From Escherichia phage EscoHU1, in sequence record NC_133119.1: a DNA stretch of 64,000 nt; one strand, given 5' to 3'. A model generated the notes under the pieces. The model was given only the letters and a program-made list of their open reading frames with translations. It was not told where the DNA came from and did not search any database. This document shows, one piece after another, positions 6,285 to 64,000 of the stretch (positions are counted from its first letter, which is position 1; the number at the start of each line of letters is the position of its first letter). The position numbers and the translations under genes are program-made.

Positions 6285-6501
6285 AAAGTGGGAGACAAGG
6301 AAGTTTCCCGTAAAAGAACGTAAAACTTCTGTTTACGATACTGCGGAGAAACTATGTAGGGTTGTACCACCTCGTCTCGCTGGTATCCCTAATGTCTCCA
6401 TATGGTTACTTAAACAACGGAAGACTCGTGTGTCTCTTCGCATTGGCTTTGAGTTAGATAAAGTCTATGCTGAGCTTGCTTCTTTGCTCAAAGAATCGTA
6501 A
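6268..6501 (+). CDS. hypothetical small basic protein
   Basis: internal ATG of ORF-track 6217..6501; overlaps stop of upstream gene by 17 nt; K/R rich. Confidence 0.4.
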   Translation: MTVKNKKWETRKFPVKERKTSVYDTAEKLCRVVPPRLAGIPNVSIWLLKQRKTRVSLRIGFELDKVYAELASLLKES

Positions 6502-6509
6502 AAATTTAT

Positions 6510-6538
6510 TTGCTTTCAGGAAAAATTTTCTGTATAAT
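6510..6538 (+). promoter_or_regulatory. sigma70-type early promoter (TTGCTT-17-TGTATAAT)
   Basis: -35 6510-6515, extended -10 TGT+TATAAT 6531-6538, followed by AAATTTGAGAGAGG leader. Confidence 0.65.
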
Positions 6539-6569
6539 AGATTCATAAATTTGAGAGAGGAGTTTAAAT

Positions 6570-7274
6570 ATGGCTGGTTCTCGTAGAAAGAAACTTATTC
6601 ATGAAATCCCTGATGAAACCTTTAAAAAGGTTATTGAACATCTGGAGAATGGTGGTACTAAGAAAGCAGCATGTGAAATGCTCGGTGTTTCTTCTAACCC
6701 AACTATGGAACGAATGATCGAAGAATGGAGAGATCGTCAGGTTCAGGTTGCGGAAATGAAAAAGAAGAAGCGCGGAACACTGATTGAAGGTGTTGAGCTT
6801 GCAAACGTAATTGAACAGTATCTTTCTGGTGATTCTTTTGAAGAAATCGCCGATCGTAACTATCGTTCTGTAGCGATGATTAAATCTGTTCTGGAACGTT
6901 ATGGTGCTCTGCTTCGCTTAAACGATATTGTTGATCCATTGAATCCTCCGTTGATTCCTGATGATGCAATGGCAGAAGAATTTGAAGTTGGTGAACTTGT
7001 TTGGGTTCCTGGCTACCAGTGTATTGGTGAAATCAAGAAAGCAATGACTAATCCAGTTGGTTGTTATCGTGTTTGGTTGTTATCAGAAGGTAAACAACAG
7101 AACGTTCACTATATGCACTACGAATTAGCTTCTGTTAAACATCTGGAAAAGCTGGGAGTTGATGTTAAAGCTCTAGGCTTTAAGTGGAGTCGTGAAGAAG
7201 TTATCACATTGGTTAATGAAGCTGTTAAAGCTGCCTTGAAACTCGATAAAGAGAAAGGAAAACGCCGTGAGTAA
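6570..7274 (+). CDS. putative DNA-binding protein (N-terminal helix-turn-helix-like)
   Basis: 234 aa; N-terminal GGTKKAACEMLGVS resembles an HTH; good RBS GAGAGGAG. Confidence 0.6.
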   Translation: MAGSRRKKLIHEIPDETFKKVIEHLENGGTKKAACEMLGVSSNPTMERMIEEWRDRQVQVAEMKKKKRGTLIEGVELANVIEQYLSGDSFEEIADRNYRSVAMIKSVLERYGALLRLNDIVDPLNPPLIPDDAMAEEFEVGELVWVPGYQCIGEIKKAMTNPVGCYRVWLLSEGKQQNVHYMHYELASVKHLEKLGVDVKALGFKWSREEVITLVNEAVKAALKLDKEKGKRRE

Positions 7275-7521
7275 ACTAACTGATCTGTTAAAAGCTGGAG
7301 ACGTAAAATATCTCCAGCGAGATAGCTGGGAAAATAATGCCTATTCTACCACTATTATCAAAGTAGATGTTGATAATAATGACATCATAGAATTTACTTG
7401 GTGGTGGTCTAAAGATGGGCGTACTAAACTCACGCTAGACGATGCATCGTGGAAAACCACTGAGCTAACTCTAGACGAAGCTCTGGCCGACGATTGGGAG
7501 ATCGTTGAACTAGATGTGTAG
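7267..7521 (+). CDS. hypothetical protein
   Basis: 84 aa; start overlaps upstream stop (coupled). Confidence 0.5.
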   Translation: MSKLTDLLKAGDVKYLQRDSWENNAYSTTIIKVDVDNNDIIEFTWWWSKDGRTKLTLDDASWKTTELTLDEALADDWEIVELDV

Positions 7522-7541
7522 CAGTTACTGAAAAATTTCAG

Positions 7542-7570
7542 TTGCTTAATCCTGTAATTCTTGATATAAT
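7542..7570 (+). promoter_or_regulatory. sigma70-type early promoter (TTGCTT-17-TATAAT)
   Basis: -35 7542-7547, -10 7565-7570. Confidence 0.65.
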
Positions 7571-7628
7571 ATTCTCATAGTTTGAAAGAACTATTCTGTT
7601 TAATTCTTAATTAAGGAAATCGAAAAAT

Positions 7629-8039
7629 ATGACTACTCCAACTCAGTGGACTGATGAACTGTTCGAAAAAATGTCTTCCGACTACGTTGCTCGTATGGAG
7701 CAATTCCCAGAAGATGAGCGTCCGGGCGTTAGCATGGAAATTGTTAGCGAAATTGCTCAGGAAAATGGTGTAACTCCGAACGGTTTCCGTATGAAGCTGA
7801 CCAAAGCAGGTCTGTATATCAAGAAAGCTGCTGGCTCTACTTCTAAATCAAGCGCATCTACTGGAGAAAAAGCTTCTGGTGGTTCTCGTACTTCCAAAGC
7901 TCAGGCTCACTCCGATCTTCGCTCTGCATTCTCTGATGCTGGCTTAGCACCGGACTTCCTGGACGACACGATCATCGACAAGCTGACCGGTAAAGCAGCT
8001 GCTCATCTGGCAGAAGCTATCAGAGCTATTACTAAGTAA
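7629..8039 (+). CDS. hypothetical protein, probably abundant early protein
   Basis: 136 aa; codon usage biased toward CTG/CGT/GGT/GCT; directly downstream of a strong promoter. Confidence 0.6.
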   Translation: MTTPTQWTDELFEKMSSDYVARMEQFPEDERPGVSMEIVSEIAQENGVTPNGFRMKLTKAGLYIKKAAGSTSKSSASTGEKASGGSRTSKAQAHSDLRSAFSDAGLAPDFLDDTIIDKLTGKAAAHLAEAIRAITK

Positions 8040-8075
8040 TTCTTAGATAAATCCACCAACACAAGGAATACAGTT

Positions 8076-8372
8076 ATGAATAAAGCTGAAATTATTGCTC
8101 AATGCGAAAAATTTGGTGAGTTTTATCTTCATTACGAAAAACTTCGTCAGAAAGGAACCACGTACCTTCAGGGTACTATGGAATTTGATCCAGCTCAGGA
8201 TAAATACCTGGCTGAGCGTATTAAACGTGAGCGCATCCGTAAGCCGAAAGAAGATGAAATCCTCGTTTTCTCTCGTACTAATGATAGCTTCCGTTTCATT
8301 CCTGTTGCGAAAGTTCGCCGTGTGACGAGCCTCCAGTCAGAGTTAGATCGTGCTTCTCCAGTAGGCCGATAA
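8076..8372 (+). CDS. hypothetical protein
   Basis: 98 aa; followed by a terminator. Confidence 0.55.
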   Translation: MNKAEIIAQCEKFGEFYLHYEKLRQKGTTYLQGTMEFDPAQDKYLAERIKRERIRKPKEDEILVFSRTNDSFRFIPVAKVRRVTSLQSELDRASPVGR

Positions 8373-8382
8373 GAAACCAATT

Positions 8383-8407
8383 AGCCCCTATATGGGGCTT
8401 TTTGTGT
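8383..8407 (+). terminator. rho-independent terminator
   Basis: hairpin AGCCCC-TATAT-GGGGCT followed by TTTTTGTG. Confidence 0.65.
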
Positions 8408-8422
8408 ATTTGGGATATGTAA

Positions 8423-8731
8423 ATGAGCGATCAAGTAAATCAAAACTATGAAGGACACGTTGACGACCAGTCCATCATGCTTTGGGAGAAGGAGGGGGAA
8501 CAAGTAAGACTAACCGTATCTGAATTTCGTGGGAATCTATACATGGGAATTCGTTACTGGCTCCAAGATATTACTGGAGAGTGGTTTCCAACGAAATCCG
8601 GCTTCTCTTTTCCTTATACCCTAGAAACTACATCACAGCTATTCTACGCTTTTACGCAAATCCTCAGCGAATCTGAGGTCTTGCATGAAGTACAGAAACG
8701 AGCTGAAGAACTCAAAGCCAAGAATGCCTAG
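8423..8731 (+). CDS. hypothetical protein
   Basis: 102 aa ORF. Confidence 0.55.
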   Translation: MSDQVNQNYEGHVDDQSIMLWEKEGEQVRLTVSEFRGNLYMGIRYWLQDITGEWFPTKSGFSFPYTLETTSQLFYAFTQILSESEVLHEVQKRAEELKAKNA

Positions 8732-8758
8732 TTCTTGGCTTTTTCTTTATAAATGTAC

Positions 8759-8787
8759 TTGCTTTCGACTCAGTTTTCATATATAAT
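8759..8787 (+). promoter_or_regulatory. sigma70-type early promoter (TTGCTT-17-TATAAT)
   Basis: -35 8759-8764, -10 8782-8787, downstream TATATAAATTGATGAGAGGA leader. Confidence 0.65.
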
Positions 8788-8816
8788 ATTTATATAAATT
8801 GATGAGAGGATCAATT

Positions 8817-9017
8817 ATGGCAATGACAATAACACTTCCAAAGATTCAAGCAAAACTTAATTTGCTCTCCATAGCAAGAATCAATTACCAGGATAGTATC
8901 GGCACTCCAAACCAGAAAGCGTACAAAGATGCGTGGTTGAAAGAAGCTGCTGATTTAGCTGGTATGGCTGCGCAGTATAGTAAAGAACTCAAAATGGAAA
9001 TCGCAGATGATGAATAA
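8817..9017 (+). CDS. hypothetical small protein
   Basis: ATG 8817 with GAGGAT RBS 7 nt upstream; trimmed from ORF-track 8799..9017. Confidence 0.5.
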   Translation: MAMTITLPKIQAKLNLLSIARINYQDSIGTPNQKAYKDAWLKEAADLAGMAAQYSKELKMEIADDE

Positions 9018-9981
9018 TGTAAAAGACTTTATTAAACGTTGTCAAGAAGCGTACTACCAGGGAATGAGTCTTATTTCCGATGAAGAATATGATCGTCTGA
9101 TTAAAAGATTCCCACTAGAGGAAGAAATCGGACCGAAAGGTGATATCCCTCATTTGTATCGTATGTATTCTTTGCAGAAAGTCTATTACGATCGTGGTGA
9201 TAAAGCTCCATTCAACCCACTTGGTCAGGTTGAAACTGATAAGTTAGATGGTTGTGCGATTTCTCTATTATATATTAATGGTGAGTTTGTTCAAGCGTTA
9301 ACTCGTGGTAACGGTATTCTAGGGAATGATGTAACGCATAATGTTAAAATGCTGAACATCCCCAAAACTATTTCCCAAAAAGTACCAACTCAAATCACTG
9401 GTGAAGTTCTCATTACTAAAGAAGTAGAGAACAAACGTAACTATGCTTCTGGTGCTATTAACCTGAAAGATAGTGATGATTTCATGCAACGTATTGGTGA
9501 AGGTGGTTTAATCTTCGTTGCATATGGTATCCAGTGTTCAGCGGAAACAGTCGGTATTACAGAAGCCTATTTAAAAGATATGCTTTGGCTAGAGAATGAG
9601 AACTTCTTGACAGTTATTAATGTTCGTTCCTTCTTTAAATGGATTCCGACAGATGGTAAAGTTGTTCGCATTAACGACAACAATAAATTCTTCCGTGAAG
9701 GTTGGACTAATAAATTTCCTCGTGGTGCATTTGCTATTAAAGAGGATGAAGAAGGCGAAATTACCACACTTGTTAAAGTTGAATGGCAAGTAGGGGCTTC
9801 TGGTAAAGTAACTCCAGTTGGTTATTTCGAACCGGTGATTATTGATGATGCCACAATCGTTAAAGCAACTCTTAATAACGTTGATTATATTAACGCTCTC
9901 GATTTAGAGATCGGTTGCCAGATTCGAGTGATTCGTGCTGGTGGTGTAATCCCTTGTATAGTAGAGCGAGTATACGACTAA
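9007..9981 (+). CDS. NAD-dependent DNA ligase, N-terminal part (adenylation/OB region)
   Basis: 324 aa; adenylation motif KLDG (TDKLDGCAIS); ends before Zn-finger/HhH/BRCT part encoded by next ORF. Confidence 0.85.
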   Translation: MMNNVKDFIKRCQEAYYQGMSLISDEEYDRLIKRFPLEEEIGPKGDIPHLYRMYSLQKVYYDRGDKAPFNPLGQVETDKLDGCAISLLYINGEFVQALTRGNGILGNDVTHNVKMLNIPKTISQKVPTQITGEVLITKEVENKRNYASGAINLKDSDDFMQRIGEGGLIFVAYGIQCSAETVGITEAYLKDMLWLENENFLTVINVRSFFKWIPTDGKVVRINDNNKFFREGWTNKFPRGAFAIKEDEEGEITTLVKVEWQVGASGKVTPVGYFEPVIIDDATIVKATLNNVDYINALDLEIGCQIRVIRAGGVIPCIVERVYD

Positions 9982-10031
9982 TTCGTAACCCTTTGCTACC
10001 CGTTTACCATGTCGGAATTATAAAGTGGTTA

Positions 10032-10060
10032 TTGACATTTTCGCCGCTTAGGTATATACT
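10032..10060 (+). promoter_or_regulatory. sigma70-type promoter (TTGACA-17-TATACT) inside ligase spacer
   Basis: -35 10032-10037, -10 10055-10060. Confidence 0.5.
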
Positions 10061-10124
10061 ATTATCATTCAGTTGAGGGATAGAAAGTTATGGCGAGGGT
10101 AAGCAAAGTTAGTTAAAATTGTAG

Positions 10125-10153
10125 TTGCTAAATGCTTAAATACTTGCTATAAT
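10125..10153 (+). promoter_or_regulatory. sigma70-type early promoter (TTGCTA-17-TATAAT)
   Basis: -35 10125-10130, -10 10148-10153, downstream TATATAAATTGATAAGGAAG leader. Confidence 0.65.
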
Positions 10154-14227: not shown

Positions 14228-16795
14228 TTGAAAATTGCAGTAGTTGATAAAGCTCTAAATAACACTCGTTATGATAAACACTTCCAGCTCTATGGTGAGG
14301 AAGTCGATGTATTCCACATGTGTAACGAGAAGTTATCTGGCCGTTTGCTGAAAAAGCATATTACAATCGGAACTCCAGATAACCCGTTCGATCCGAACGA
14401 TTACGATTTTGTTGTGCTAGTTGGTGCTGAACCTTTCCTGTATTTCGCAGGTAAGAAAGGTATTGGTGATTATACTGGTAAACGTGTAGAGCATGGCGGC
14501 TATGCCAACTGGATTGCAAGTATTAGTCCAGCTCAGTTACACTTTAAACCTGAAATGAAACCAGTTTTCGATGCAACTGTAGAAAGTATTCACGATATTA
14601 TTAATGGTCGTGAGAAGATTGCAAAAGCTGGTGATTATCGTCCCATTACTGATCCAGATGAAGCGGAAGAATACATTAAGATGGTGTATAACATGGTTAT
14701 CGGACCTATCGCATTCGACTCCGAAACCTCAGCTTTATACGCTCGTGATGGTTATCTGCTTGGTGTTTCTATGTCTCACCAAGAGTATCAGGGTGTTTAT
14801 ATTGACTCTGACAGCATCACCGAAGTAGCTGTACATTATCTCCAGAAAATTCTGGATAGCAAGAATCATCAGATCGTTTTCCATAACTTGAAGTTCGATA
14901 TGCACTTTTACTCCTATCATCTAGGACTCTCCTTTGAGAAAGCACATAAAGAGCGTAGACTTCATGATACCATGTTACAACACTATGTTCTCGATGAACG
15001 TCGTGGTACTCACGGCTTGAAATCTCTGGCTATGAAGTATACTGACATGGGCGATTACGACTTTGAACTGGATAAGTTCAAGGATGATTATTGCAAGGCA
15101 CATAAGATCAAAAAAGAGGATTTCAGCTATGATCTGATTCCATTTGATATTATGTGGCCATATGCTGCAAAGGATACCGATGCTACTCTGCGTCTGCATA
15201 ACTTCTTCTTATCGAAAATTGAGAAGAATGAAAAACTTTGCAGTCTATACTATGATGTTCTAATGCCTGGTTGTGTATTCCTGCAACGTGTTGAAGATCG
15301 TGGTGTACCGATTTCTGTTGATCGCTTGAAAGAAGCTCAGTATCAATTAACTCATAACCTGAACAAGGCTCGTGAGAAGCTGTATACTTATCCAGAAGTC
15401 GTTCAGCTAGAGAAAGATCAGAATGAAGCGTTTAACCCGAACTCTGTTAAGCAACTTCGTGTTCTTCTGTTTGATTATGTTGGTTTGACTCCAACAGGTA
15501 AACTGACGGATACAGGTGCAGATTCTACAAACGCAGAAGCTCTGAACGAACTAGCTACTCAGCACCCGATTGCTAAAACTCTGCTAGAGATTCGTAAGCT
15601 GACTAAGCTGATCTCTACTTATGTTGAGAAGATTCTTCTGAGCATCGATGCAGATGGTTGCATTCGTACTGGCTTCCACGAACACATGACTACTTCTGGT
15701 CGTCTGAGTTCTTCTGGTAAGCTGAACCTGCAACAGTTACCACGTGATGAATCTATTATCAAGGGTTGTGTAGTAGCTCCTCCTGGATATCGTGTAATCG
15801 CATGGGACTTAACAACTGCGGAAGTTTATTACGCTGCTGTACTGTCTGGTGACAGAAACATGCAACAAGTATTTATCAACATGAAGAATGAGCCGGATAA
15901 ATACCCTGACTTCCACTCAAACATCGCACACATGGTATTTAAACTGACCTGTGAACCACGTGATGTTAAAAAGCTGTTCCCAGCTCTGCGTCAGGCTGCT
16001 AAGGCAATTACCTTCGGTATTCTGTATGGTTCTGGCCCAGCGAAAGTAGCTCATTCTGTTAACGAAGCTCTTCTGGAACAGGCTGCTAAGACAGGCGAAC
16101 CGTTTGTTGAATGTACCGTTGCAGATGCTAAGGACTATATCGAAACTTACTTCGGTCAGTTCCCTCAGCTTAAGCGTTGGATTGATAAGTGCCACGATCA
16201 GATCAAGAACTTTGGATTCATCTATAGTCACTTTGGTCGTAAGCGTCGTCTGCACAACATCCATTCCGAAGATCGTGGTGTTCAGGGTGAAGAAATCCGT
16301 TCTGGATTTAACGCAATCATTCAGTCTGCATCTTCTGATAGCCTGTTGTTAGGTGCTATTGATGCTGATGAAGAAATCCTGTCACTGGGTCTAGGAAAAG
16401 AGATGAAGATCGTCATGTTGGTTCACGACTCCGTGGTTGCCATTGTACGTGAAGATCTGATCGATCAGTATAACGAGATTCTGATTCGTAGCATCCAGAA
16501 GGATCGTGGTATTAGTATCCCTGGCTGCCCAATCGGTATTGATTCTGATTCTGAGAAAGGTGGTTCTCGTGACTACTCTTGTGGTAAGATGAAGAAACAG
16601 CACCCATCAATCGCTTGTATTGATGATGATGAGTATACTCGTTATGTTAAGGGTGTATTACTCGATGCAGATTTCGAGTATAAGAAGTTAGCTGCAATGG
16701 ATAAAGAGCATCCAGACCACAGCAAGTACAAGGATGATAAGTTTATTGCTGTATGTAAAGATCTGGATAATGTGAAAAGGATTTTAGGTGCTTGA
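14228..16795 (+). CDS. family A DNA polymerase with 3'-5' exonuclease domain
   Basis: 855 aa; exo motif FDSETSALY; Pol A motif B RQAAKAITFGILYGSG; TTG start after AAGGAGA RBS. Confidence 0.9.
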   Translation: MKIAVVDKALNNTRYDKHFQLYGEEVDVFHMCNEKLSGRLLKKHITIGTPDNPFDPNDYDFVVLVGAEPFLYFAGKKGIGDYTGKRVEHGGYANWIASISPAQLHFKPEMKPVFDATVESIHDIINGREKIAKAGDYRPITDPDEAEEYIKMVYNMVIGPIAFDSETSALYARDGYLLGVSMSHQEYQGVYIDSDSITEVAVHYLQKILDSKNHQIVFHNLKFDMHFYSYHLGLSFEKAHKERRLHDTMLQHYVLDERRGTHGLKSLAMKYTDMGDYDFELDKFKDDYCKAHKIKKEDFSYDLIPFDIMWPYAAKDTDATLRLHNFFLSKIEKNEKLCSLYYDVLMPGCVFLQRVEDRGVPISVDRLKEAQYQLTHNLNKAREKLYTYPEVVQLEKDQNEAFNPNSVKQLRVLLFDYVGLTPTGKLTDTGADSTNAEALNELATQHPIAKTLLEIRKLTKLISTYVEKILLSIDADGCIRTGFHEHMTTSGRLSSSGKLNLQQLPRDESIIKGCVVAPPGYRVIAWDLTTAEVYYAAVLSGDRNMQQVFINMKNEPDKYPDFHSNIAHMVFKLTCEPRDVKKLFPALRQAAKAITFGILYGSGPAKVAHSVNEALLEQAAKTGEPFVECTVADAKDYIETYFGQFPQLKRWIDKCHDQIKNFGFIYSHFGRKRRLHNIHSEDRGVQGEEIRSGFNAIIQSASSDSLLLGAIDADEEILSLGLGKEMKIVMLVHDSVVAIVREDLIDQYNEILIRSIQKDRGISIPGCPIGIDSDSEKGGSRDYSCGKMKKQHPSIACIDDDEYTRYVKGVLLDADFEYKKLAAMDKEHPDHSKYKDDKFIAVCKDLDNVKRILGA

Positions 16796-47329: not shown

Positions 47330-48543
47330 TCTTTATCCCCATCGGCAGTGCCTTGCGGTCTACCACCTTCTTGACCAGATACACCTGTTGCAGAACCAGC
47401 AACGTTAGCAGGAATACGAATCTTATTCATCTGCTCATCATCTAAAGGTTCAAGGTTAAGCTCTTCACGAGCTTCGTTACCAGTCATGATACCGTTATTA
47501 ACCAAAGAGGTTAAATGTTTAGCCTCAGCTTCTTTATCTGGCGTCAGTGCAGCTACTTCCTTAGTATTAGGAGTAACCTTGTAGCCAAAGAAGAAAGTAA
47601 GAGAACTAGTCAGCTTGTTCAGCATAGGAATGATAGTCATGTAATAGAACAATTCGATGTTTGGTCGAATGTTAGCATTATTACCACCATCAAGTAACAC
47701 TTGCGGAACACCAAAGGCAAGACAGATGGATTTATTAAATCCTTCGATATCTTCCTTGAAGTCTAGATCTTTAAAAGAGGATATTTGGGAGTACGGTTTT
47801 GCTTTCATACCACCATCTAGAATCAGGACAGTAGACTGACCCGTACTAGGATTATAATCGAGTTGTAATTCTTCTTGTTTACGCTCACGCAATTTCTTGT
47901 TCAGGATTTCATCCGTCTCAAGAATAAGACCAATCACAGTGCCGTTATCGAGGAACTTCTCTTTAAAGTTAAGCATTTTAGAACGCTTCTCAAGAGAGTC
48001 AATAACTGTAGCAACACGAGATTGTCCAGAAATTTGGGAGTTTGTGCCACACACGTAACTGTTATCCTTTATAAAGATAATCTCATCTACGCGATAGTCT
48101 ATCTGGTTATTAAATATGAATTTTTTGATAAACTTATTGGCATCTGCCTCTACTTGCATTAGTGCAGCAGGGACATGGTAAAGTGCTGTGCCATCCCAAT
48201 AGATGTATGCACAACCCTCAAAAAGTAGGTCAGTGACTACAAGTCTACGGAATGTGCTTATATCCATGAATGGATTAGGTCGTACATTTAAGAGAGTGTC
48301 TAGAGTCTTTGCCTTGACGCCATTAGCGTACGTGACAATATTATATTTATCTCCGACAGTATAAGAACACTCCGCCGCACTATCGATAACCATGTTAGCA
48401 GTTCGGTTGAGAATCTCAATCTTACTGTAGGCTTGTCCAGTGGTAAATGGCTTACGGTTAGTGCGATGACTAACTGGTTCCATGTCTCTTATAATACGTT
48501 GACCCGGATTTAGCTTTTCAGTAATCCAGCTTTTTAAACCCAT
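47326..48543 (-). CDS. portal protein (T5 pb7-like)
   Basis: 405 aa; position between decoration gene and terminase. Confidence 0.85.
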   Translation of the reverse strand: MGLKSWITEKLNPGQRIIRDMEPVSHRTNRKPFTTGQAYSKIEILNRTANMVIDSAAECSYTVGDKYNIVTYANGVKAKTLDTLLNVRPNPFMDISTFRRLVVTDLLFEGCAYIYWDGTALYHVPAALMQVEADANKFIKKFIFNNQIDYRVDEIIFIKDNSYVCGTNSQISGQSRVATVIDSLEKRSKMLNFKEKFLDNGTVIGLILETDEILNKKLRERKQEELQLDYNPSTGQSTVLILDGGMKAKPYSQISSFKDLDFKEDIEGFNKSICLAFGVPQVLLDGGNNANIRPNIELFYYMTIIPMLNKLTSSLTFFFGYKVTPNTKEVAALTPDKEAEAKHLTSLVNNGIMTGNEAREELNLEPLDDEQMNKIRIPANVAGSATGVSGQEGGRPQGTADGDKE

Positions 48544-55776: not shown

Positions 55777-57441
55777 TTATGCAAAGAATTTACCGTTTTT
55801 GAAATCAATCAAAGTACGTTGCCCGTTTGCATAGGTAATTAAATGCGTTTGCGTCCAGCTTGACGCGCCCACGTTGTAACCCATATCAAGCGACCCCGCC
55901 ACGCCAGCGGTATAAACGCCGCCGTAAATGCTAGCCGTATGAGTATGACCAGTGTTAAGGCGTCCAAGTTTCTTAAACTGCTTAGGATTGCCCCGACTGC
56001 CGTTAATGCCATTGTGACCATGTACGCCGCACTCAATGCCAGCGATTTTAAATGACTGGTCAGTAGTCAGGAAAATAGCGTTAAATTCGCAACCTGCAAC
56101 GTTTCTAAGCGCGTAATCTAGCACGTTAAAGGTATCATCCTTTTCAGCAATAGCGGCGTAAATCGCAGCGTTTAGACGGTGATACAATTCCGCGTTTGCG
56201 GGATCGTCTTTAATGTTAGCGTTACGATCATCAAGCCAGCGTGAAAGAGCTAAATCATGGTTAGATTCCACAATGATTGTTTGAGAGAAATCACGCTCCA
56301 TTGATTCTAATACGCGTCCAGTATCGATAAGATCATCAATAACTTTATCACGTCCTGCGGCGTACTGTTTAGCAAGGAATACACCACTAGCGCGGTTGTG
56401 ATGGTTGCGCGATGTAAAATCATGCACATCATGAATAAACTGATATTTAGGCTTGAGAATATCAAGCAAGCTGTTTTCACTAGCCCATGATGCAACGGCG
56501 CAATCATCATCTAATTTTTCGGCGTGAATATCGCCATATTGCAAGCCTAGAACATGATCGGACGTTTTATAACATCCGGTAGGAGTAGCGCAAACATTCA
56601 AATCATAGAACATTCCGCTTTCATCCATTGTTTCAAGCTGGCGAACGAAAAATTCTCCGTCGTCGTCGAACTCCACCAGCAAAGCGCCGAAATTATGCAG
56701 AGCCTCAGCTTTTTGACCTGCTTTCTGCTGAATGTAGTTTTTAAGCGTAGCCGTTCCGGTTGAATACATACGGCGCACTACTTCACCTTTTAACGCTGGC
56801 ACACTTTCAGCGGTGATTTTAGCGTGACCTATTGCCAGCCCTTCAATATTTAAAGCCGTGGCGGTTTCTGCGAATCCTGAAAGCGGATAATCTGCCGTTG
56901 GTAAAACGTTAATTTCAGCCATGAAAGCAAAGCGGCGGTTATTCAGGAAAACATTTTTATCGCAGATATATTTATCAAATGCGGGATCGTATTTGATTCC
57001 TTCTGCACCTTCCCCGTTCTGGAATCCATTTTTATTATAAATGAATTTACTAATCAGCAATTCAGCACCGATATATTCAGCAAATTTTTCCAGACTTGCT
57101 AAAAAGTTTTTATGCGGGAAAGTATTATTTTGAATCGACGTTAGAATAAAACGGCGACCGGATTTAACTTCCCATTGTTCAACGGTACTAGAAACAATTC
57201 CCGCCGCTTCGGGGCGATCATCATTTTTAATCGCCTTTTCAGCTTTTGCCGCTTTCGGTTTCGCTGGCTTGTTTGCTTCCAGCCAATCACAAATCGCGGT
57301 TGAATGTTTCGGCGTATCATAAACAGCTTTTGAAATATCGTCGCAAACTTCCAATTTAGTAGCGCGTAAACGCTTACCGTAGAAATTAAAATCAGCGGCC
57401 ATTTTCAAAATTTGAGCTTGTTTTTCTGCGGAAATATTCAT
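55777..57441 (-). CDS. A1: A1-like pre-early protein (metallophosphoesterase-type)
   Basis: 554 aa; calcineurin-like phosphoesterase motifs (GDIHAE, GNHD, GHTHTAS); size matches T5 A1. Confidence 0.8.
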   Translation of the reverse strand: MNISAEKQAQILKMAADFNFYGKRLRATKLEVCDDISKAVYDTPKHSTAICDWLEANKPAKPKAAKAEKAIKNDDRPEAAGIVSSTVEQWEVKSGRRFILTSIQNNTFPHKNFLASLEKFAEYIGAELLISKFIYNKNGFQNGEGAEGIKYDPAFDKYICDKNVFLNNRRFAFMAEINVLPTADYPLSGFAETATALNIEGLAIGHAKITAESVPALKGEVVRRMYSTGTATLKNYIQQKAGQKAEALHNFGALLVEFDDDGEFFVRQLETMDESGMFYDLNVCATPTGCYKTSDHVLGLQYGDIHAEKLDDDCAVASWASENSLLDILKPKYQFIHDVHDFTSRNHHNRASGVFLAKQYAAGRDKVIDDLIDTGRVLESMERDFSQTIIVESNHDLALSRWLDDRNANIKDDPANAELYHRLNAAIYAAIAEKDDTFNVLDYALRNVAGCEFNAIFLTTDQSFKIAGIECGVHGHNGINGSRGNPKQFKKLGRLNTGHTHTASIYGGVYTAGVAGSLDMGYNVGASSWTQTHLITYANGQRTLIDFKNGKFFA

Positions 57442-57835: not shown

Positions 57836-58252
57836 TTATTCACCTGCGGCCTGTTTCACTTCCTCCGCTACGCCTAACAATTGCGCCACGGCTTCCAGCG
57901 TTTCCAGTTTTGCACTTTCCAGACTTGCCAGATCATCAGCGTCTTTAATAACGCCAGCATCAATGGCATGTTTAGCCATAACGCGCACATAGTGAGCTTT
58001 ACGGACACTAGACCCGCCGCCAACTTTACGCGGTTTATCGCTTTTCTGGTACGCTTTTGCGCTTGTCAGTTTAGAACGTACAGACACCGGACTAGCAGCG
58101 CCAACGGCGGCGGCAATTTCTTTTAAGCCGTCACTATTCGCAAACTCAATCCCGCTTTTAGCGACCATTTCAGAATACATAGAAACAGCCTTTTCGGTGT
58201 TTTCTTCGTTCCAAGAAAATTTTGCGGTTTTTTCGGTTTTAACGTTAGACAT
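57836..58252 (-). CDS. putative A2-like pre-early DNA-binding protein
   Basis: 138 aa; assigned by position upstream of A1-like gene and size only. Confidence 0.45.
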   Translation of the reverse strand: MSNVKTEKTAKFSWNEENTEKAVSMYSEMVAKSGIEFANSDGLKEIAAAVGAASPVSVRSKLTSAKAYQKSDKPRKVGGGSSVRKAHYVRVMAKHAIDAGVIKDADDLASLESAKLETLEAVAQLLGVAEEVKQAAGE

Positions 58253-58604: not shown

Positions 58605-59377
58605 TTTTAATACTCCGGTTTATTGGGGATTATTCCACAATAGCGCCTCGATACTTTGAAACGCTATTAGATTATAATCCGCTAGGAGTTAGCCTAAACA
58701 TTACCGTTATCCAAATTTTTAAAGAGCAGTTACTACGGGGAACATCTTAAAACCTATCGGCTAGCGTGTCAAGCGTTTTTTAAACTTTTTTCGATTTGAT
58801 GTGAGTTATATAAATCAATCATTATATTACGCCACACCATTTCCAGCCCTTGTTGCTTGCCTTTCTTGTATTGCTTGAATCTGTATTTTACAGATCGTTG
58901 CGCTACTGTCAACAAATTTTTTGTTCTGCTATCCAGTGGGCTAGCAGGTTTCGCACTAATCACTAAAGCGTTTTTTGATTTGATCATTATCGTCGATTCC
59001 TTATATTATATAAGTTTACCGCCGATAGGCTTTAAGATATTCCCTAATTTTTAAAGAGCATGGCGGTAAACTTCCCCGCCGTTGTAGTCTGGCCTTTCGT
59101 TTCCGTCTTGCCGTCCTACGAGATAAATAATAGGTTATTCCCGAAAATGGCGCAAGCATATTTTTGTAAAGAAACGTAAAGAAAACCACTACTCGCAAAC
59201 GTCCAGCGGCGCACTAAATTTAATGAAACGGGCGCGCGAATAACACCAAAACAACCATTTTAGCAAGTAATTTTTTCATTTATATTTGCTTTGCCCTACT
59301 TGACAAAATCTAAAATCCTCGTGGTGAGGTTTTCTCGGTGTACCCCTTATGATTGCCTATCTTTTCCTTTGAGGCGC

Positions 59378-59404
59378 TTAGAATCGCTTACAGAGCGTTT
59401 TAGA
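59378..59404 (+). repeat. 27-bp direct repeat, copy 1 (TTAGAATCGCTTACAGAGCGTTTTAGA)
   Basis: 24/27 identical to 63154-63180. Confidence 0.7.
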
Positions 59405-59620
59405 CCCTGTTAATAACTTATACAAAAAGCAAAAATGAAATTTAATGAATTATCCACTTGATTTTTCAAAAAAGTATTTTCTGCTGTTATTTTTCATTGA
59501 CAAATAAGTTTAGGCGTGTATCAGACCCTTAGCAGACTAACAATCGCTAGGATGATAATCACGCTGGTGGATTGTAACAGCCGAAACAGTTAGCAGACTA
59601 TTAATACTCTAAAAACCTAT

Positions 59621-59650
59621 TAGCCAACTAACTATTTCATATTATATAAT
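59621..59650 (+). promoter_or_regulatory. candidate rightward promoter (TAGCCA-18-TATAAT)
   Basis: -10 TATAAT 59645-59650 with AT-rich downstream leader; weak -35. Confidence 0.35.
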
Positions 59651-59721
59651 ATACTTATAAATTAAAGAGAAATAATAACTATAAGAAACTATCGGCTAAG
59701 TGAGAACCACTATCATTTAGG

Positions 59722-59742
59722 TTATTCACAAAGTTATCCACA
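59722..59742 (+). promoter_or_regulatory. pair of DnaA boxes (TTATTCACA, TTATCCACA)
   Basis: 9-mers at 59722-59730 and 59734-59742 match TTATNCACA. Confidence 0.6.
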
Positions 59743-59782
59743 GCACAAAATAACTTGACGCAATAGGCGACGTTTTGGCGAC

Positions 59783-59829
59783 TTATCCACAGACTTATGT
59801 ACAGGTTATCCTACTGTATAAATATACAG
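59783..59829 (+). repeat. 47-bp inverted repeat, left copy (DnaA box + SOS-box-like palindrome)
   Basis: 41/47 identical to reverse complement of 63213-63259; begins with TTATCCACA 59783-59791. Confidence 0.7.
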
Positions 59830-59830
59830 G
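59811..59830. promoter_or_regulatory. LexA (SOS) box-like palindrome CTGTATAAATATACAG
   Basis: CTGT-N8-ACAG with AT-rich centre; matches E. coli LexA consensus TACTGTATATATATACAGTA at 17/20. Confidence 0.55.
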
Positions 59831-60017
59831 GTAGAATGGTAGCAGTAACAACCGCAATCAAATTTAAGCGGCCTAAAACGCGTTCTAAGCGGTTTTTCAG
59901 CATTACCCCTTATTATAATAAAGCCTTGTGTACGCTTACAGAGAGCTAGAAATAGAAAACGCGCGGTTAGCACAAAAATAGGCAGTAGGCAAGGAATAAA
60001 AAACCTTTTCTTTTTTC

Positions 60018-60047
60018 TTGCCCCTAGCGAACAAATATCTATATCAT
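60018..60047 (+). promoter_or_regulatory. candidate promoter for rightward operon (TTGCCC-18-TATCAT)
   Basis: -35 60018-60023, -10 60042-60047, ~30 nt before RBS GAGGGAG. Confidence 0.35.
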
Positions 60048-60078
60048 TCACTCACCGATTAACGAGGGAGACAAAGAA

Positions 60079-61080
60079 ATGTCTACTGTAAGAATTGCAG
60101 TACCAACAAACGCAACTATTATTAAAGGTAGTTTGCGCAACCTGCTAGATGGTAGTAGTGCGGCAAGTATTCAGCACACCGCCGCAATGGTTGAAAAAAT
60201 TCACGAGGATATTTTAGATAATAATGATACTCATTATTCAGTCGATGATTTCACGCTATTACTAGACCAGACAAGGGCGCTAGTAATTTTCAACCGTGAT
60301 TATCACATTTTCCGTAATAGTCGTGGAACTGATATTGATTTTATCATTGTTGGTTATAGTGAGTCTCATAATGGTTACATTGCGCGATTATATAACGTGC
60401 AAGAAAAAGAGCAGGTAACAGCAACAAAAGTAAATAGTATCAGGCTTGATAGTGTCGGGTCGTTATTAAATAGTATCTGGCGCGAATTATCGTCAAGCTA
60501 TAAAGGCGCGGATAGTGACGCAATCGAAACAACTGGCGTATTGTGTTTTGAACGCGCTAGCGGTAACATGTTGATTCCTGACGATTATTTAGGGTACGGG
60601 AATGAATCAAACGTTGCAAACGCTGGATTTACATTAAAACCGCTTGACAACGTAGCAAAACAGGCTGTAGAATCTCAAACTTCAAGCGCAAATGCGCAAA
60701 CTACTGAAAATAAAGGAAATATTATGTCTAAAGTATCTTCTATCGTTGCTGCTAATAAATCCGCCGTTGTAAACGCTGCTAAATTGGAAGCGGGTAAAAT
60801 TGCACTGACTCAAATCACAAAAGTAGCGGCGAAAAAAGCGCCGTTTATGATTAAAGGGTATATTGATACGCCGATTGGTCGCGTAGTGATCGCTAACCTG
60901 CTGAGTGTAGCGGTTGACCAGTACGCCCCGACTAATGCGAAAGCGAAAGCGGTAGCAGGCGCGGCAATGGAAGCGGCAATGTTGGAAATGGTACAGAGTT
61001 TCAATATTGCGGAAATGATCGATGAAATGGTAAAAGGTATTGACATTTCTACTTTTACCAATAACACCGAAAGCGAGTAA
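60079..61080 (+). CDS. hypothetical protein
   Basis: 333 aa; RBS GAGGGAG; Ala/Lys-rich C-terminal half; no enzymatic motif. Confidence 0.55.
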   Translation: MSTVRIAVPTNATIIKGSLRNLLDGSSAASIQHTAAMVEKIHEDILDNNDTHYSVDDFTLLLDQTRALVIFNRDYHIFRNSRGTDIDFIIVGYSESHNGYIARLYNVQEKEQVTATKVNSIRLDSVGSLLNSIWRELSSSYKGADSDAIETTGVLCFERASGNMLIPDDYLGYGNESNVANAGFTLKPLDNVAKQAVESQTSSANAQTTENKGNIMSKVSSIVAANKSAVVNAAKLEAGKIALTQITKVAAKKAPFMIKGYIDTPIGRVVIANLLSVAVDQYAPTNAKAKAVAGAAMEAAMLEMVQSFNIAEMIDEMVKGIDISTFTNNTESE

Positions 61081-61088
61081 TAATAACT

Positions 61089-61120
61089 AGCGGGGATTAT
61101 TTCCCCGCTTTACTATTTCC
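61089..61120 (+). terminator. rho-independent terminator / attenuator
   Basis: AGCGGGGA-TTATT-TCCCCGCT followed by TTACTATTT. Confidence 0.55.
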
Positions 61121-61145
61121 CTGCTAATTAATAGGAGACTAATTA

Positions 61146-61640
61146 ATGTCAGAAGAAAAATATGGCTTTTCGCTAGAAAGTGTGAATGAAGCTAAACACG
61201 ATATGATCGTTTTAGTTGATTGTCATACTGGTTATTGCGGGGAGGGCTGGACGGAAGAACATTTTGTTCCCGCTGGCTGTGATCTGGATGCTTTCGCAAA
61301 CGAACACGCATATGATAATGCTTCTCGTTTCGGTAGCGATGGGGAAGAAGATGAAGAAACAGGGGAATGGATTGAAAATGATAATGTATATGCGAGTCTT
61401 TATCATTATCAATTGAGTAAGTCCGGTACTTATGTAAATGGCGGCGATCCTATTAATATCGTTATGAAACTAATTATTAAACACGGTGGCGCGGAAATAA
61501 TTGGTAACAAGGCGTTATTATACGCAAACCGATTAAAACAGCTTGTTTATATTCCTGATAATTCCCGTTGGGATGAATATGCCGTTTTACAGAAAGAATT
61601 AAAACGCTGTTTCGGCGTGGAAGCATTAGAAATAGTCTAA
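61146..61640 (+). CDS. hypothetical acidic protein
   Basis: 164 aa; acidic patch GSDGEEDEETGEWIEND; RBS TAGGAGA. Confidence 0.55.
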   Translation: MSEEKYGFSLESVNEAKHDMIVLVDCHTGYCGEGWTEEHFVPAGCDLDAFANEHAYDNASRFGSDGEEDEETGEWIENDNVYASLYHYQLSKSGTYVNGGDPINIVMKLIIKHGGAEIIGNKALLYANRLKQLVYIPDNSRWDEYAVLQKELKRCFGVEALEIV

Positions 61641-61749
61641 TGTAAAGTTTTGTAAAGGTCGCTTTAATCGGCGGCCTTTTTTGTTATAATGCCTTTACAC
61701 CGAAACGGTGGATTGAAAATTTTCCCAAAATTTTTTGGAGGCGTTAAAA

Positions 61750-61980
61750 ATGGTTGCTTTCTCTTCTTCTGACTCTCTTTTCACTGGTAAAGGTTGGGTA
61801 TCTAATCGCTGGATCATTGATCAAATGGTTTCGGAATTTGGGATAGGTAAAACTTATGTTACTATTCAGGCGCTTTATGATAATGATCAGATTGACCAGC
61901 AAACCGCCGGATTTTTGCTGGACACGTTGAAATCAGAACATTGCACCAAAAAGCAAGCGGCAAAAATCGTTTTAATGTAA
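61750..61980 (+). CDS. hypothetical small protein
   Basis: ATG 61750 after GGAGG RBS; trimmed from ORF-track 61735..61980 (TTG). Confidence 0.45.
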   Translation: MVAFSSSDSLFTGKGWVSNRWIIDQMVSEFGIGKTYVTIQALYDNDQIDQQTAGFLLDTLKSEHCTKKQAAKIVLM

Positions 61981-62033
61981 TTAATAACGGGGCGTTACTT
62001 TCGCCCCTCATTCCCTAACTAGGAGTTAAGCAA

Positions 62034-62246
62034 ATGTTAAAGAATGTTTCCCTTGCCCGTTCTAAAGGTTTTAAGCTGGTGGATGTTAACACGTTCGAGC
62101 GTCCAGATTGTAAAATCGAATATGTAGCACGCAACAAAAACGCTTTCCGTGTTACAGAAAAGAAATTTGACAAGCGCGGAAATTTGGTAGCCGAAACGGT
62201 TAAACACTTTGCCACCTTTTACGCTGCGTTTCGTGGGGTGTTATGA
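62034..62246 (+). CDS. hypothetical small protein
   Basis: 70 aa; RBS TAGGAG. Confidence 0.5.
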   Translation: MLKNVSLARSKGFKLVDVNTFERPDCKIEYVARNKNAFRVTEKKFDKRGNLVAETVKHFATFYAAFRGVL

Positions 62247-62344
62247 GATCCTTATATATTGCTCTAGCGTTTGCTACCGTTGGCGTTGTATGTTCCGTCG
62301 CCGCATTTGTTTTAAAAATGTACCTGATATTTTCCCAGCTTTAG
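62243..62344 (+). CDS. small hydrophobic peptide
   Basis: 33 aa MRSLYIALAFATVGVVCSVAAFVLKMYLIFSQL; ATGA overlap with upstream stop; not in ORF track. Confidence 0.3.
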   Translation: MRSLYIALAFATVGVVCSVAAFVLKMYLIFSQL

Positions 62345-62355
62345 GAGCTTGACAA

Positions 62356-62703
62356 ATGGTTATTTACGAGGGCAATCGTTTTGTTGCTAATTGCCGTCCG
62401 GCATTATTAGCAAACTATTTAAATCAGCTTTCACCAGTTTATAAAGGTGTGGTTAATATCTATGAAGGCAAAGCACATTATAAAATTTCTGCCGTTGTCG
62501 CTCGCGAGCTTGCCTTTCAGTTTCTTACTTTTAACTCATGCGATATTCAGGTTATGGGTGAGTCATTAGTAGCAGAAAATGAAAATGAATTTATTGACAT
62601 TTTCCGCAAAGTATGTACCGAGCGCCTGATTATGAAAGGCGCATATATTCAATCAACCGCTGATAGTATTGAAACAGCGTTTCGAAAAATTGCATATGAA
62701 TAG
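62356..62703 (+). CDS. hypothetical protein
   Basis: 115 aa; RBS TAGGAGC. Confidence 0.5.
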   Translation: MVIYEGNRFVANCRPALLANYLNQLSPVYKGVVNIYEGKAHYKISAVVARELAFQFLTFNSCDIQVMGESLVAENENEFIDIFRKVCTERLIMKGAYIQSTADSIETAFRKIAYE

Positions 62704-62742
62704 CTGGTGGCGTAAAACGCAAAGTCACAAATCTAATAATAC

Positions 62743-62772
62743 CGCTGGGAAACATTCCCAGCGTTTACGATT
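62743..62772 (+). terminator. terminator-like hairpin
   Basis: CGCTGGGA-AACA-TCCCAGCG followed by TTTACGATTT. Confidence 0.45.
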
Positions 62773-62826
62773 TGGTAATGGCTTCACAATGATATTGATA
62801 ATCATTCTCATTCTAGGAGCAATGGC

Positions 62827-63066
62827 ATGGCTGTAAGAATTTTACGATATGTAGAACGTAAAGAAACCGATATTATGCAGCATCATTTAACTGATGCGCA
62901 ATATGCGCAATTTTTAGAAATGCAGAAAAGCGGAGCTAGTACGGCGGCGCTAGGGGCGTGGATCAATTCAGTTTCAATATGTACGCATTTTGATTCATAC
63001 GGATATACGCCAGCCGAAACCGTCCAGATCTTTGACGACTACGAGAAGGAATACATAGCAGACTAA
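62827..63066 (+). CDS. hypothetical small protein
   Basis: 79 aa; RBS TAGGAGCA. Confidence 0.5.
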   Translation: MAVRILRYVERKETDIMQHHLTDAQYAQFLEMQKSGASTAALGAWINSVSICTHFDSYGYTPAETVQIFDDYEKEYIAD

Positions 63067-63072
63067 TAATAA

Positions 63073-63101
63073 CGGGGCGCAACTACCGGCCCCGCCTTTT
63101 C
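63073..63101 (+). terminator. rho-independent terminator at end of rightward operon
   Basis: CGGGGC-10 nt-GCCCCG followed by CCTTTTCT. Confidence 0.5.
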
Positions 63102-63153
63102 TGGCCTTCCTCAAATTTCCCCTTGTAAAATACCTCCTCCAAAAATAAACGCG

Positions 63154-63180
63154 TTAGAATGCGTTACAGAGCGTTTTAGA
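63154..63180 (+). repeat. 27-bp direct repeat, copy 2 (TTAGAATGCGTTACAGAGCGTTTTAGA)
   Basis: 24/27 identical to 59378-59404. Confidence 0.7.
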
Positions 63181-63210
63181 GCTATATTAGAGCTATTCAC
63201 TACACAGGAA

Positions 63211-63230
63211 TACTGTATAAATATACAGTA
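63211..63230. promoter_or_regulatory. LexA (SOS) box-like palindrome TACTGTATAAATATACAGTA
   Basis: 19/20 match to E. coli LexA consensus; core 16-mer identical to 59814-59829. Confidence 0.6.
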
Positions 63231-63259
63231 GAATAACCTGTTGATAAGTCTGTTGATAA
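63213..63259 (-). repeat. 47-bp inverted repeat, right copy (SOS-box-like palindrome + degenerate DnaA boxes)
   Basis: reverse complement is 41/47 identical to 59783-59829; contains TGTTGATAA twice. Confidence 0.7.
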
Positions 63260-63352
63260 CGCCTCAAAATCGCTAGGATTTTGTCAGGTCAAATCGTGCT
63301 GTTAATAAACCTGTGAATAAATTAAATAACAGTGTTTCTCACTTCACTTTGT

Positions 63353-63497
63353 AAATGCGAGTCATTCTCGTTATCATTCGCGTTTCCCTTCCTAAATGCA
63401 AATCATTCTCATTCGTATTCCGGTAGTCAAATGATAACCATTCTCATTCGCATTCAACTTCTCAAATGCGAATCAATCTCATTATCATTCGCATTTT
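63353..63497 (+). repeat. tandem array of four imperfect palindromic units (consensus AAATGCGAATCATTCTCATT-N-CATTCGCATT)
   Basis: units start at 63353, 63394, 63429, 63464 (35-41 bp period); each unit is internally palindromic. Confidence 0.75.
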
Positions 63498-63502
63498 GGC
63501 AG

Positions 63503-63535
63503 GCAGGGCATTTTCATTTTGCCCTGCGCTTTTGT
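63503..63535 (+). terminator. hairpin between repeat arrays
   Basis: GCAGGGC-ATTTTCATTTT-GCCCTGC followed by GCTTTTG. Confidence 0.35.
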
Positions 63536-63757
63536 GCAAATCCGACATTTGCCCCCACGGATTACGTGCCAGCGTGCATGTGCGAATCCGACAATTTTTG
63601 GTAGTGTGCAAATCCGATGGCAAATATTTTTTATATGTGCGAATCCGACAATGAATTTTCCTAAAAACTCCAGCAATCACGAGTGCGGCTCGATTCCTGT
63701 GGAATTAGCTAGAATATGCGCAGAACCGACAAGCGTTAAGGTGTGCGAATCCGACAA
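63533..63757 (+). repeat. six direct copies of a 16-bp motif TGTGCGAATCCGACAA
   Basis: copies at 63533, 63579, 63605, 63636, 63717, 63742, all same orientation, irregular 25-81 bp spacing. Confidence 0.75.
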
Positions 63758-64000
63758 GATTTTTGTGACTTCGATGAGAGGGTGTGTAATTGTGTGAGTT
63801 TGTGGGAGAGTTGATGCAGCGAGAGAAAATTAGAGGAGAAACTGGAGGGTGCAGCTGTGGTGGCGTGAAACGCCTGGTTTGCTGCGTTTTTGGGGATAAT
63901 GTGGGATGTTTTGGGATAATTGGGCATGGAGCGAGATAAAGTGAAATTTTATTAGCAAAATGGGGCAAAATCGCTTGACAAGTGAAAATTCCTGTGGCTC

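Follow-up and report, generated by a model that had tools for sequence, protein, structure and literature searches.

In oriC of E. coli, strong R boxes are flanked by weak sites approximately 2 bp away, and the sites are organised in two oppositely oriented arrays. DnaA-box repeats are also the leading cis-acting candidates for the entry pause of phage T5, whose DNA halts after approximately 8% of the genome has entered the cell and then restarts, a question that has been open for decades. In the T5 genome, 'Repeat Region 2' holds a 131-bp IRC-spacer-IRD element, and its inverted counterpart, IRD'-spacer-IRC', is found in 'Repeat Region 3', the candidate injection stop signal (Davison 2020, bioRxiv 10.1101/866236). 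According to the same preprint, the element comprises eight DnaA/DnaA* boxes that are paired with a separation of 3 bp and conserved in 25 T5-like phages, and phage types entirely without IRC/IRD exist as well; the first T5 DnaA boxes are credited there to Heusterspreute et al. 1987. Membrane-bound DnaA was proposed to grip the boxes and thereby to halt DNA entry (Davison 2020). Experimental studies of the role of the DnaA boxes have been described as lacking (Skutel 2023, BF23 paper), and the idea is still cited just as a proposal (PNAS 2026). A second host motif, the SOS box (LexA operator), has the consensus TACTGTATATATATACAGTA (PMC13203515).

The DNA analysed here, referred to as the window, is a stretch of 64,000 nucleotides (64 kb) of Escherichia phage EscoHU1 (NC_133119.1), a T5-like phage (Epseptimavirus; Demerecviridae); the Epseptimavirus genomes of SpoonbillGilly, HMD-P2 and Stitch show 95-96% identity to it. 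In Stitch, the stretch matching the DnaA-box locus is contained in the 9,982-bp annotated terminal repeat, at a distance of ~5.7 kb from its left end (Stitch coordinates); as terminase and receptor-binding genes are located upstream of the repeat, the copy present in the window would be either the repeat at the right-hand end or both repeats collapsed into one. The locus is situated within this long terminal repeat, in the untranslated stretch that separates the A1/A2 operon from the rightward pre-early operon (Table 1). Of the original prediction, the position of the boxes ahead of the rightward operon and their relation to the inverted copies near 63.2 kb were confirmed; these are the DnaA-type boxes of the T5 first-step-transfer (FST) DNA. 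The T5 counterpart of the first gene of this operon, T5.011, is toxic and difficult to clone in E. coli (Annor et al. 2026, bioRxiv 10.64898/2026.04.02.716235).

The EscoHU1 box cluster is Davison's IRC-spacer-IRD/IRD'-spacer-IRC' element and, as such, already known: It occupies the equivalent position, in the part of the terminal repeat that separates the divergent pre-early operons, the length of the inverted repeat is 132 nt (131 bp in T5), the box pairs are separated by 3 bp in both phages, and the identity amounts to ~80%. There is no essential difference, the EscoHU1 element being the homologue in another phage; compared with Davison's description of T5, a fifth, degenerate box is counted here and the IRD end is read as a LexA-type operator. 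New are the interpretation of the palindrome as a LexA-type site, the DnaA-like spectrum of box substitutions, the depth of conservation, and the dispensability of the proximal arm in T5 as deduced from primer positions.

Table 1. Features of the DnaA-box module and its surroundings in the EscoHU1 window (window coordinates).
Feature	Position	Strand	Basis or remark
A1	55777-57441	-	leftward dmp-A1-A2 operon, left of box locus
A2	57836-58252	-	leftward dmp-A1-A2 operon, left of box locus
Proximal arm, homologue of T5 IRC-spacer-IRD ('Repeat Region 2')	59698-59829	+	inverted-repeat search; alignment to T5
Box 1, TTATTCACA	59722-59730	+	fits TTWTNCACA; consensus in 26/30 distinct relatives
Box 2, TTATCCACA, perfect	59734-59742	+	start 12 bp after box 1 (3-bp gap); consensus in 16/30 relatives
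TTGAC(G/A) hexamer in spacer between box pairs	59754-59759	+	kept in both arms of nearly all relatives, including Klebsiella and Erwinia
Box 3, TTATCCACA, perfect	59783-59791	+	start 49 bp after box 2; consensus in 28/30 relatives
Box 4, TTATGTACA	59795-59803	+	1 mismatch to TTWTNCACA; start 12 bp after box 3
Box 5, TTATCCTAC, degenerate half-box	59806-59814	+	start 11 bp after box 4; overlaps palindrome flank
LexA-like palindrome TACTGTATAAATATACAGGG	59812-59831		3 mismatches to TACTGTATATATATACAGTA; core CTGT-N8-ACAG at 59814-59829; end of proximal arm
Probable promoter of rightward operon, TTGCCC-18-TATCAT	60018-60047	+	promoter scan; aligns to AY543070 regulatory feature 6411-6489 upstream of T5.011
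Rightward pre-early operon	60079-63066	+	ORF list, Stitch annotation, Pfam; between the two arms
First ORF of rightward operon, DUF7566 (T5.011 homologue)	60079-61080	+	Pfam; full-length
LexA-like palindrome TACTGTATAAATATACAGTA	63211-63230		1 mismatch to TACTGTATATATATACAGTA; inner end of distal arm
Distal arm, homologue of T5 IRD'-spacer-IRC'	63213-63344	-	inverted-repeat search; T5 counterpart within annotated iss
Distal-arm box TTATTCTAC	63228	-	
Distal-arm box TTATCAACA	63239	-	
Distal-arm box TTATCAACA	63251	-	
Distal-arm box TTATTAACA	63300	-	
Distal-arm box TTATTCACA	63312	-	

The two 132-nt arms are 74% complementary and enclose 3,383 nt. The arm-to-arm alignment (mean column identity of 84%) revealed a common layout, which in both arms consists, in this order, of a leader AGTGAGAA.CACT, boxes 1-2, a spacer with TTGAC(A/G), boxes 3-5 and the terminal palindrome CTGTATA(AA/TT)TATACAG. 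The phasing is likewise shared: Boxes 1 and 2 are 12 bp apart, boxes 3, 4 and 5 follow each other at 12 and 11 bp, and box 3 follows box 2 at 49 bp in either arm; each arm contains two box pairs (59722/59734 and 59783/59795; 63239/63251 and 63300/63312), and the alignments of about 30 relatives per arm are free of gaps between the boxes. Since the palindromes are positioned at the inner arm ends, both box arrays point towards the bracketed operon. The distal-arm counterpart of the spacer hexamer is found at ~63283-63288 on the minus strand. A function of the spacer TTGACA as a -35 element was rejected, as inspection gave no acceptable -10 at a distance of 16-18 bp and none was listed by the promoter scan.

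The proximal cluster is composed of five head-to-tail DnaA-type 9-mers (59722-59814). TTATTCACA and the two perfect TTATCCACA boxes are present on the plus strand exactly where they had been predicted; of the copies with one or two mismatches claimed for 59795-59814, TTATGTACA holds with two, whereas TTATCCTAC has three. The degenerate inverted copies reported at 63239-63259 are real, with TTATCAACA at 63239-63247 and at 63251-63259 on the minus strand, and the set also includes TTATTAACA at 63300 and TTATTCACA at 63312. The number of boxes as such is not elevated: The two proximal TTATCCACA boxes are the only perfect ones in the 64-kb window (0.74 expected, P = 0.17), and five TTWTNCACA sites in the window compare with 5.3 in simulated sequence. 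Their distribution is a different matter, as four of the five TTWTNCACA consensus sites fall within two 132-bp stretches; the same two stretches hold four of the five same-strand pairs at 11-12-bp phasing (0.83 expected; maximum of 4 over 200 simulations). A chance cluster was therefore rejected on the basis of phasing, inverted duplication and conservation, the raw counts being no part of the case.

For the comparison with related phages, 37 loci around A1 homologues from IMG/VR (T5 included) and eight annotated relatives were used. Wherever a T5-like locus had sufficient flanking sequence, both arms were present, and they also occur in Klebsiella (Sugarlandvirus) and Erwinia phages. The identity of the EscoHU1 arms to the T5 copies (locus L035) amounts to 79.6% for the proximal arm (142 nt aligned) and to 90.7% for the distal one (140 nt aligned); box 2 is degenerate in T5 and intact in EscoHU1. 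The position of box 4 is occupied by TTATCCACA in 23 of 30 relatives, whereas that of box 5 matches the consensus in no relative, yet is kept as TTAT(C/T)CTAC. In the profile of boxes 1-4 (236 instances), positions 1, 2, 4, 7, 8 and 9 hardly vary, position 3 is exclusively A (213) or T (23), position 5 is any of the four bases, and position 6 is C in 70% and A in 28% of the instances, with the C-to-A exchange fixed at boxes 2 and 3 of the distal arm. As judged from these alignments, the substitution spectrum mirrors the DnaA consensus TT(A/T)TNCACA with the exception of position 6; the boxes seem to evolve as is expected of DnaA sites across host genera. The commonest variants provide at least one consensus box per pair, so that a strong site usually lies beside a weak one.

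Beyond the close relatives, the module was traced into Vibrio phages, the A1 and A2 of which are only ~33% identical. Three of these phages contain 5 perfect TTATCCACA boxes each in 13-17 kb (0.14-0.20 expected), which are arranged at 50- and 12-bp spacings and adjoin the palindrome; Vibrio phi 3 has 2 perfect TTATCCACA boxes, and the distal copy is the only one found. In Proteus phage Stubb, the recognisable distal copy consists of one perfect box and the palindrome, and the proximal intergenic region yielded the palindrome only, with no boxes found. Shewanella phage 1/40, which served as negative control, has an A1 homologue and is devoid of the T5-type repeat layout, the boxes and the palindrome. 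A search of 2.9 million viral contigs with a composite pattern (box, 22 nt, palindrome) retrieved only contigs of 95-123 kb, and all identified ones were T5-like. A variant module layout was observed in Vibrio phage 70E36-1 (locus L092, 5088-5186, 8192-8335 and 8941), where three LexA-like palindromes are surrounded by DnaA boxes in both orientations.

The original prediction had tentatively placed the equivalent of the T5 injection-stop boxes at 59722-59791, an assignment that did not survive the alignment to T5. The T5 iss is annotated at 9140-10149 (AY543070 misc_feature) and includes the T5 distal arm (9403-9543), whereas the T5 proximal arm (6097-6237) lies outside of it and roughly 3.4 kb before the FST/SST boundary (shear point at ~9.6 kb). 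The predicted locus corresponds to Repeat Region 2 of T5 and it is the distal copy, 63213-63344, that falls in the iss region; as a stop signal the proximal locus was consequently rejected, being ~3.4 kb upstream of iss in the middle of the FST DNA, with the iss position taken by its partner arm. The likeness to the T5 iss is thus confined to the partner arm, which is located in the homologous region and followed by iss-type direct repeats, in contrast to the proximal locus, whose counterpart is missing from a viable T5 mutant. This mutant, ΔLΔR, is without hegG to 017 and forms smaller plaques (Annor et al. 2026). Its deletion primers map to T5 5361-5390 and 9161-9186, which gives a deletion of ~5391-9160; judging from these primer positions, ΔLΔR has lost the whole proximal arm and retained the distal arm. 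By the same reasoning, its viability indicates that the proximal arm is not essential for two-step transfer, and this arm appears to be dispensable in T5. It is accordingly the distal arm that should be mutated, a viable T5 mutant apparently being devoid of the proximal one.

Taken together, the locus probably represents the promoter-proximal, accessory copy of a cis-acting host-factor-binding module of ~132 bp (for DnaA and probably LexA), two inverted copies of which bracket the rightward pre-early operon. The accessory status of the proximal arm is based on the viability of ΔLΔR, on Vibrio phi 3 with its distal-only copy, and on Davison's phage types without IRC/IRD. According to this model, host DnaA would nucleate on the consensus boxes once FST DNA is in the cell and would spread cooperatively to the weaker boxes at a distance of 2-3 bp, as in the oriC arrays, whereas LexA would probably sit on the palindrome, so that both arms would be covered by a stable nucleoprotein complex. 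The universal copy is the distal arm, which is located in the injection-stop region; the proximal arm would be an accessory partner that might either associate with it, the operon in between being looped out, or modulate pre-early events in some other way. The similarity to oriC includes the same-orientation 9-mers at 11-12-bp phasing, the consensus boxes beside weaker ones, and the two arrays facing each other. In contrast to oriC, the EscoHU1 arrays are 3.4 kb apart (oriC: ~100 bp), the arms are without 13-mer unwinding elements or GATC sites, and the proximal arm is, by inference from T5, dispensable.

No other part of the module is conserved as deeply as the palindrome, which recurs in phages ranging from those of E. 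coli to those of Vibrio. A consensus search of the 64-kb window for TACTGTATATATATACAGTA gave 2 matches only, one per arm end (0.00 expected). With a LexA matrix derived from 19 E. coli SOS boxes (one close to the query dropped), on which all scores are approximate, 63211-63230 obtained 25.8 bits and 59812-59831 22.4 bits in comparison with 12.6-23.1 bits for the training boxes; the distal palindrome thus outscores every SOS box of the training set. Two further matches to the matrix, 15378-15397 (16.7 bits) and 48423-48442 (15.3 bits), are within the range of genuine SOS boxes and far from the terminal repeat. A third copy of the palindrome at 51012 was taken as a chance occurrence, since it lies inside a 593-aa ORF and has one half-site only. 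Among the distinct relatives, an intact CTGT-N8-ACAG was counted in 22 of 30 sequences for the proximal arm and in 25 of 29 for the distal arm. The centre of the palindrome switches between AA and TT among phages and between the arms (ATAAATAT versus its reverse complement ATATTTAT), which could reflect symmetric recognition or gene conversion of one inverted arm by the other; Vibrio phages often possess the asymmetric centre ATATCCAT with CTGTAT...ATACAG retained. Intact half-sites, a flipping centre and the Vibrio centre variants would be compatible with recognition of the outer half-sites by a symmetric dimer. A hairpin or cruciform role was discarded, because the single-stranded hairpins are weak (-3.3 and -4.9 kcal/mol) and the central symmetry is broken in the Vibrio variants.

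The palindromes resemble LexA operators in that they deviate from the 20-mer consensus by 1 and 3 mismatches, preserve CTGT-N8-ACAG and reach scores at least equal to those of genuine E. coli boxes on the approximate matrix. They depart from such operators in three respects: No recognisable strong promoter underlies these putative LexA sites, each site is fused to an array of DnaA boxes, and the phage is strictly virulent. LexA, SOS or promoters are not mentioned in Davison's preprint (bioRxiv 10.1101/866236), and a search of the accessible literature retrieved no link between LexA and T5-like phages; relative to that literature, the LexA-type reading of the palindrome is new. As a tentative extension, possible rather than probable, each arm might be a DnaA array fused to a LexA operator, by which T5-like phages would recruit two host DNA-binding proteins at once and the palindrome-bound LexA would help to hold, loop or time the FST DNA. 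If this were true, the pause or the pre-early expression would be tied to the SOS state of the host, which would itself be altered by the A1-driven DNA degradation of T5. LexA is a second host-factor candidate that is easily testable.

Certain features of the module do not fit the preferred host-factor reading well. The absence of a convincing promoter at the palindrome is atypical for a LexA operator, and the conservation of the C6-to-A variants TTATCAACA and TTATTAACA at distal boxes 2 and 3, off the DnaA consensus, could mean that another protein is the true ligand; the 12-bp tandem box units also look like iterons for a phage protein.

In the original prediction, binding of DnaA was also considered to contribute to transcription control. 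A transcriptional operator, with DnaA and/or LexA acting on the promoter of the T5.011 homologue or on a weak inward-facing promoter with its -10 in the palindrome, is an unlikely function of the cluster. The location upstream of the operon and the classical role of LexA boxes as operators would agree with it, but direct control via the boxes is not supported by their position: The T5-annotated gene 011 promoter aligns to 60018-60047, i.e. ~190-300 bp downstream (187 bp from the palindrome, 204-296 bp from the boxes), and this alignment rules out that the boxes overlap the operon promoter. The palindromes themselves overlap weak promoter-like matches only. In the distal arm, TTATCA-16-TATATT (63247-63220) would use box 4 as -35 and have its -10 in the palindrome, and an equivalent TTATGT-16-TATAAA was read by eye in the proximal arm; the hexamers are poor, however, with 9 of 12 positions matched at the distal site and 2-3 of 6 in the proximal -35, and a palindrome whose centre flips among phages is ill-suited to a directional -10. 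A conserved TAGCCA-18-TATAAT (59621-59650) could drive transcripts through the boxes. Finally, the second copy of the module is situated after the last ORF of the operon, where there is nothing downstream to control. No structured RNA was indicated either, as an Rfam scan of 58900-64000 gave nothing better than E = 0.84.

It is distinctly unlikely that the 9-mers and the palindrome are sites for a phage protein, A2 or the A1 nuclease, with the resemblance to host sites due to coincidence or mimicry. Second-step transfer requires both A1 and A2, the latter is predicted to bind DNA, and Davison proposed A1 cleavage at palindromes of this region (bioRxiv 10.1101/866236); the iteron-like 12-bp tandem arrangement of the boxes and the conservation of the non-consensus TTATCAACA/TTATTAACA variants would be in line with such a ligand. 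Nevertheless, the motifs match the host consensus exactly even in Vibrio and Proteus phages with A2 of 33-40% and A1 of 33-42% identity, and this constancy across hosts, set against the divergence of A2, disfavours a phage-protein ligand, which is the main rival reading. Moreover, the box substitutions follow the DnaA degeneracy at positions 3 and 5, the changes in the palindrome spare the LexA half-sites, and Shewanella phage 1/40 combines an A1 homologue with the absence of the module. A DnaA-dependent phage replication origin, superficially suggested by the oriC-like combination of a same-orientation box array with a 21% G+C tract (59600-59700) directly to the left, is highly improbable, given that the T5 origins were mapped near the genome centre (cited in Davison, bioRxiv 10.1101/866236), that replication genes are absent during FST (same preprint), that the T5 mutant without the proximal arm (as deduced from its primers) is viable, that the distal arm has no AT-rich flank (39% G+C), and that zero GATC sites occur within 150 bp of either arm.

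Apart from the host-factor module proper, several sequence elements were observed in its vicinity. A match to the IHF consensus WATCAANNNNTTR is provided by TATCAACAGGTTA at 63234-63246 (minus strand), which extends into distal boxes 4 and 5; an IHF site was rejected, as this sole match needs the TTATCAACA variant that is missing in most relatives at that box. The 100-bp AT-rich tract at 59600-59700 directly left of the proximal arm is highly conserved; its promoter-like TAGCCA-18-TATAAT faces into the boxes, and the tract might be a promoter or prone to unwinding. A 25-27-nt element, TTAGAATCGCTTACAGAGCGTTTTAGA, occurs at 59378-59404, 59870-59894 and 63154-63180: One of the direct repeats is located closely outside the proximal arm and the other shortly ahead of the distal arm, the inverted copy follows immediately on the proximal arm, and the copies form a further repeat layer around the module. 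Past the distal arm, a unit of ~50 nt is present four times (three copies within 63336-63496) and is accompanied by four TGTGCGAATCCGACA-type 21-mers (63533-63762); both are presumably the counterparts of the direct repeats reported in the iss region of T5.
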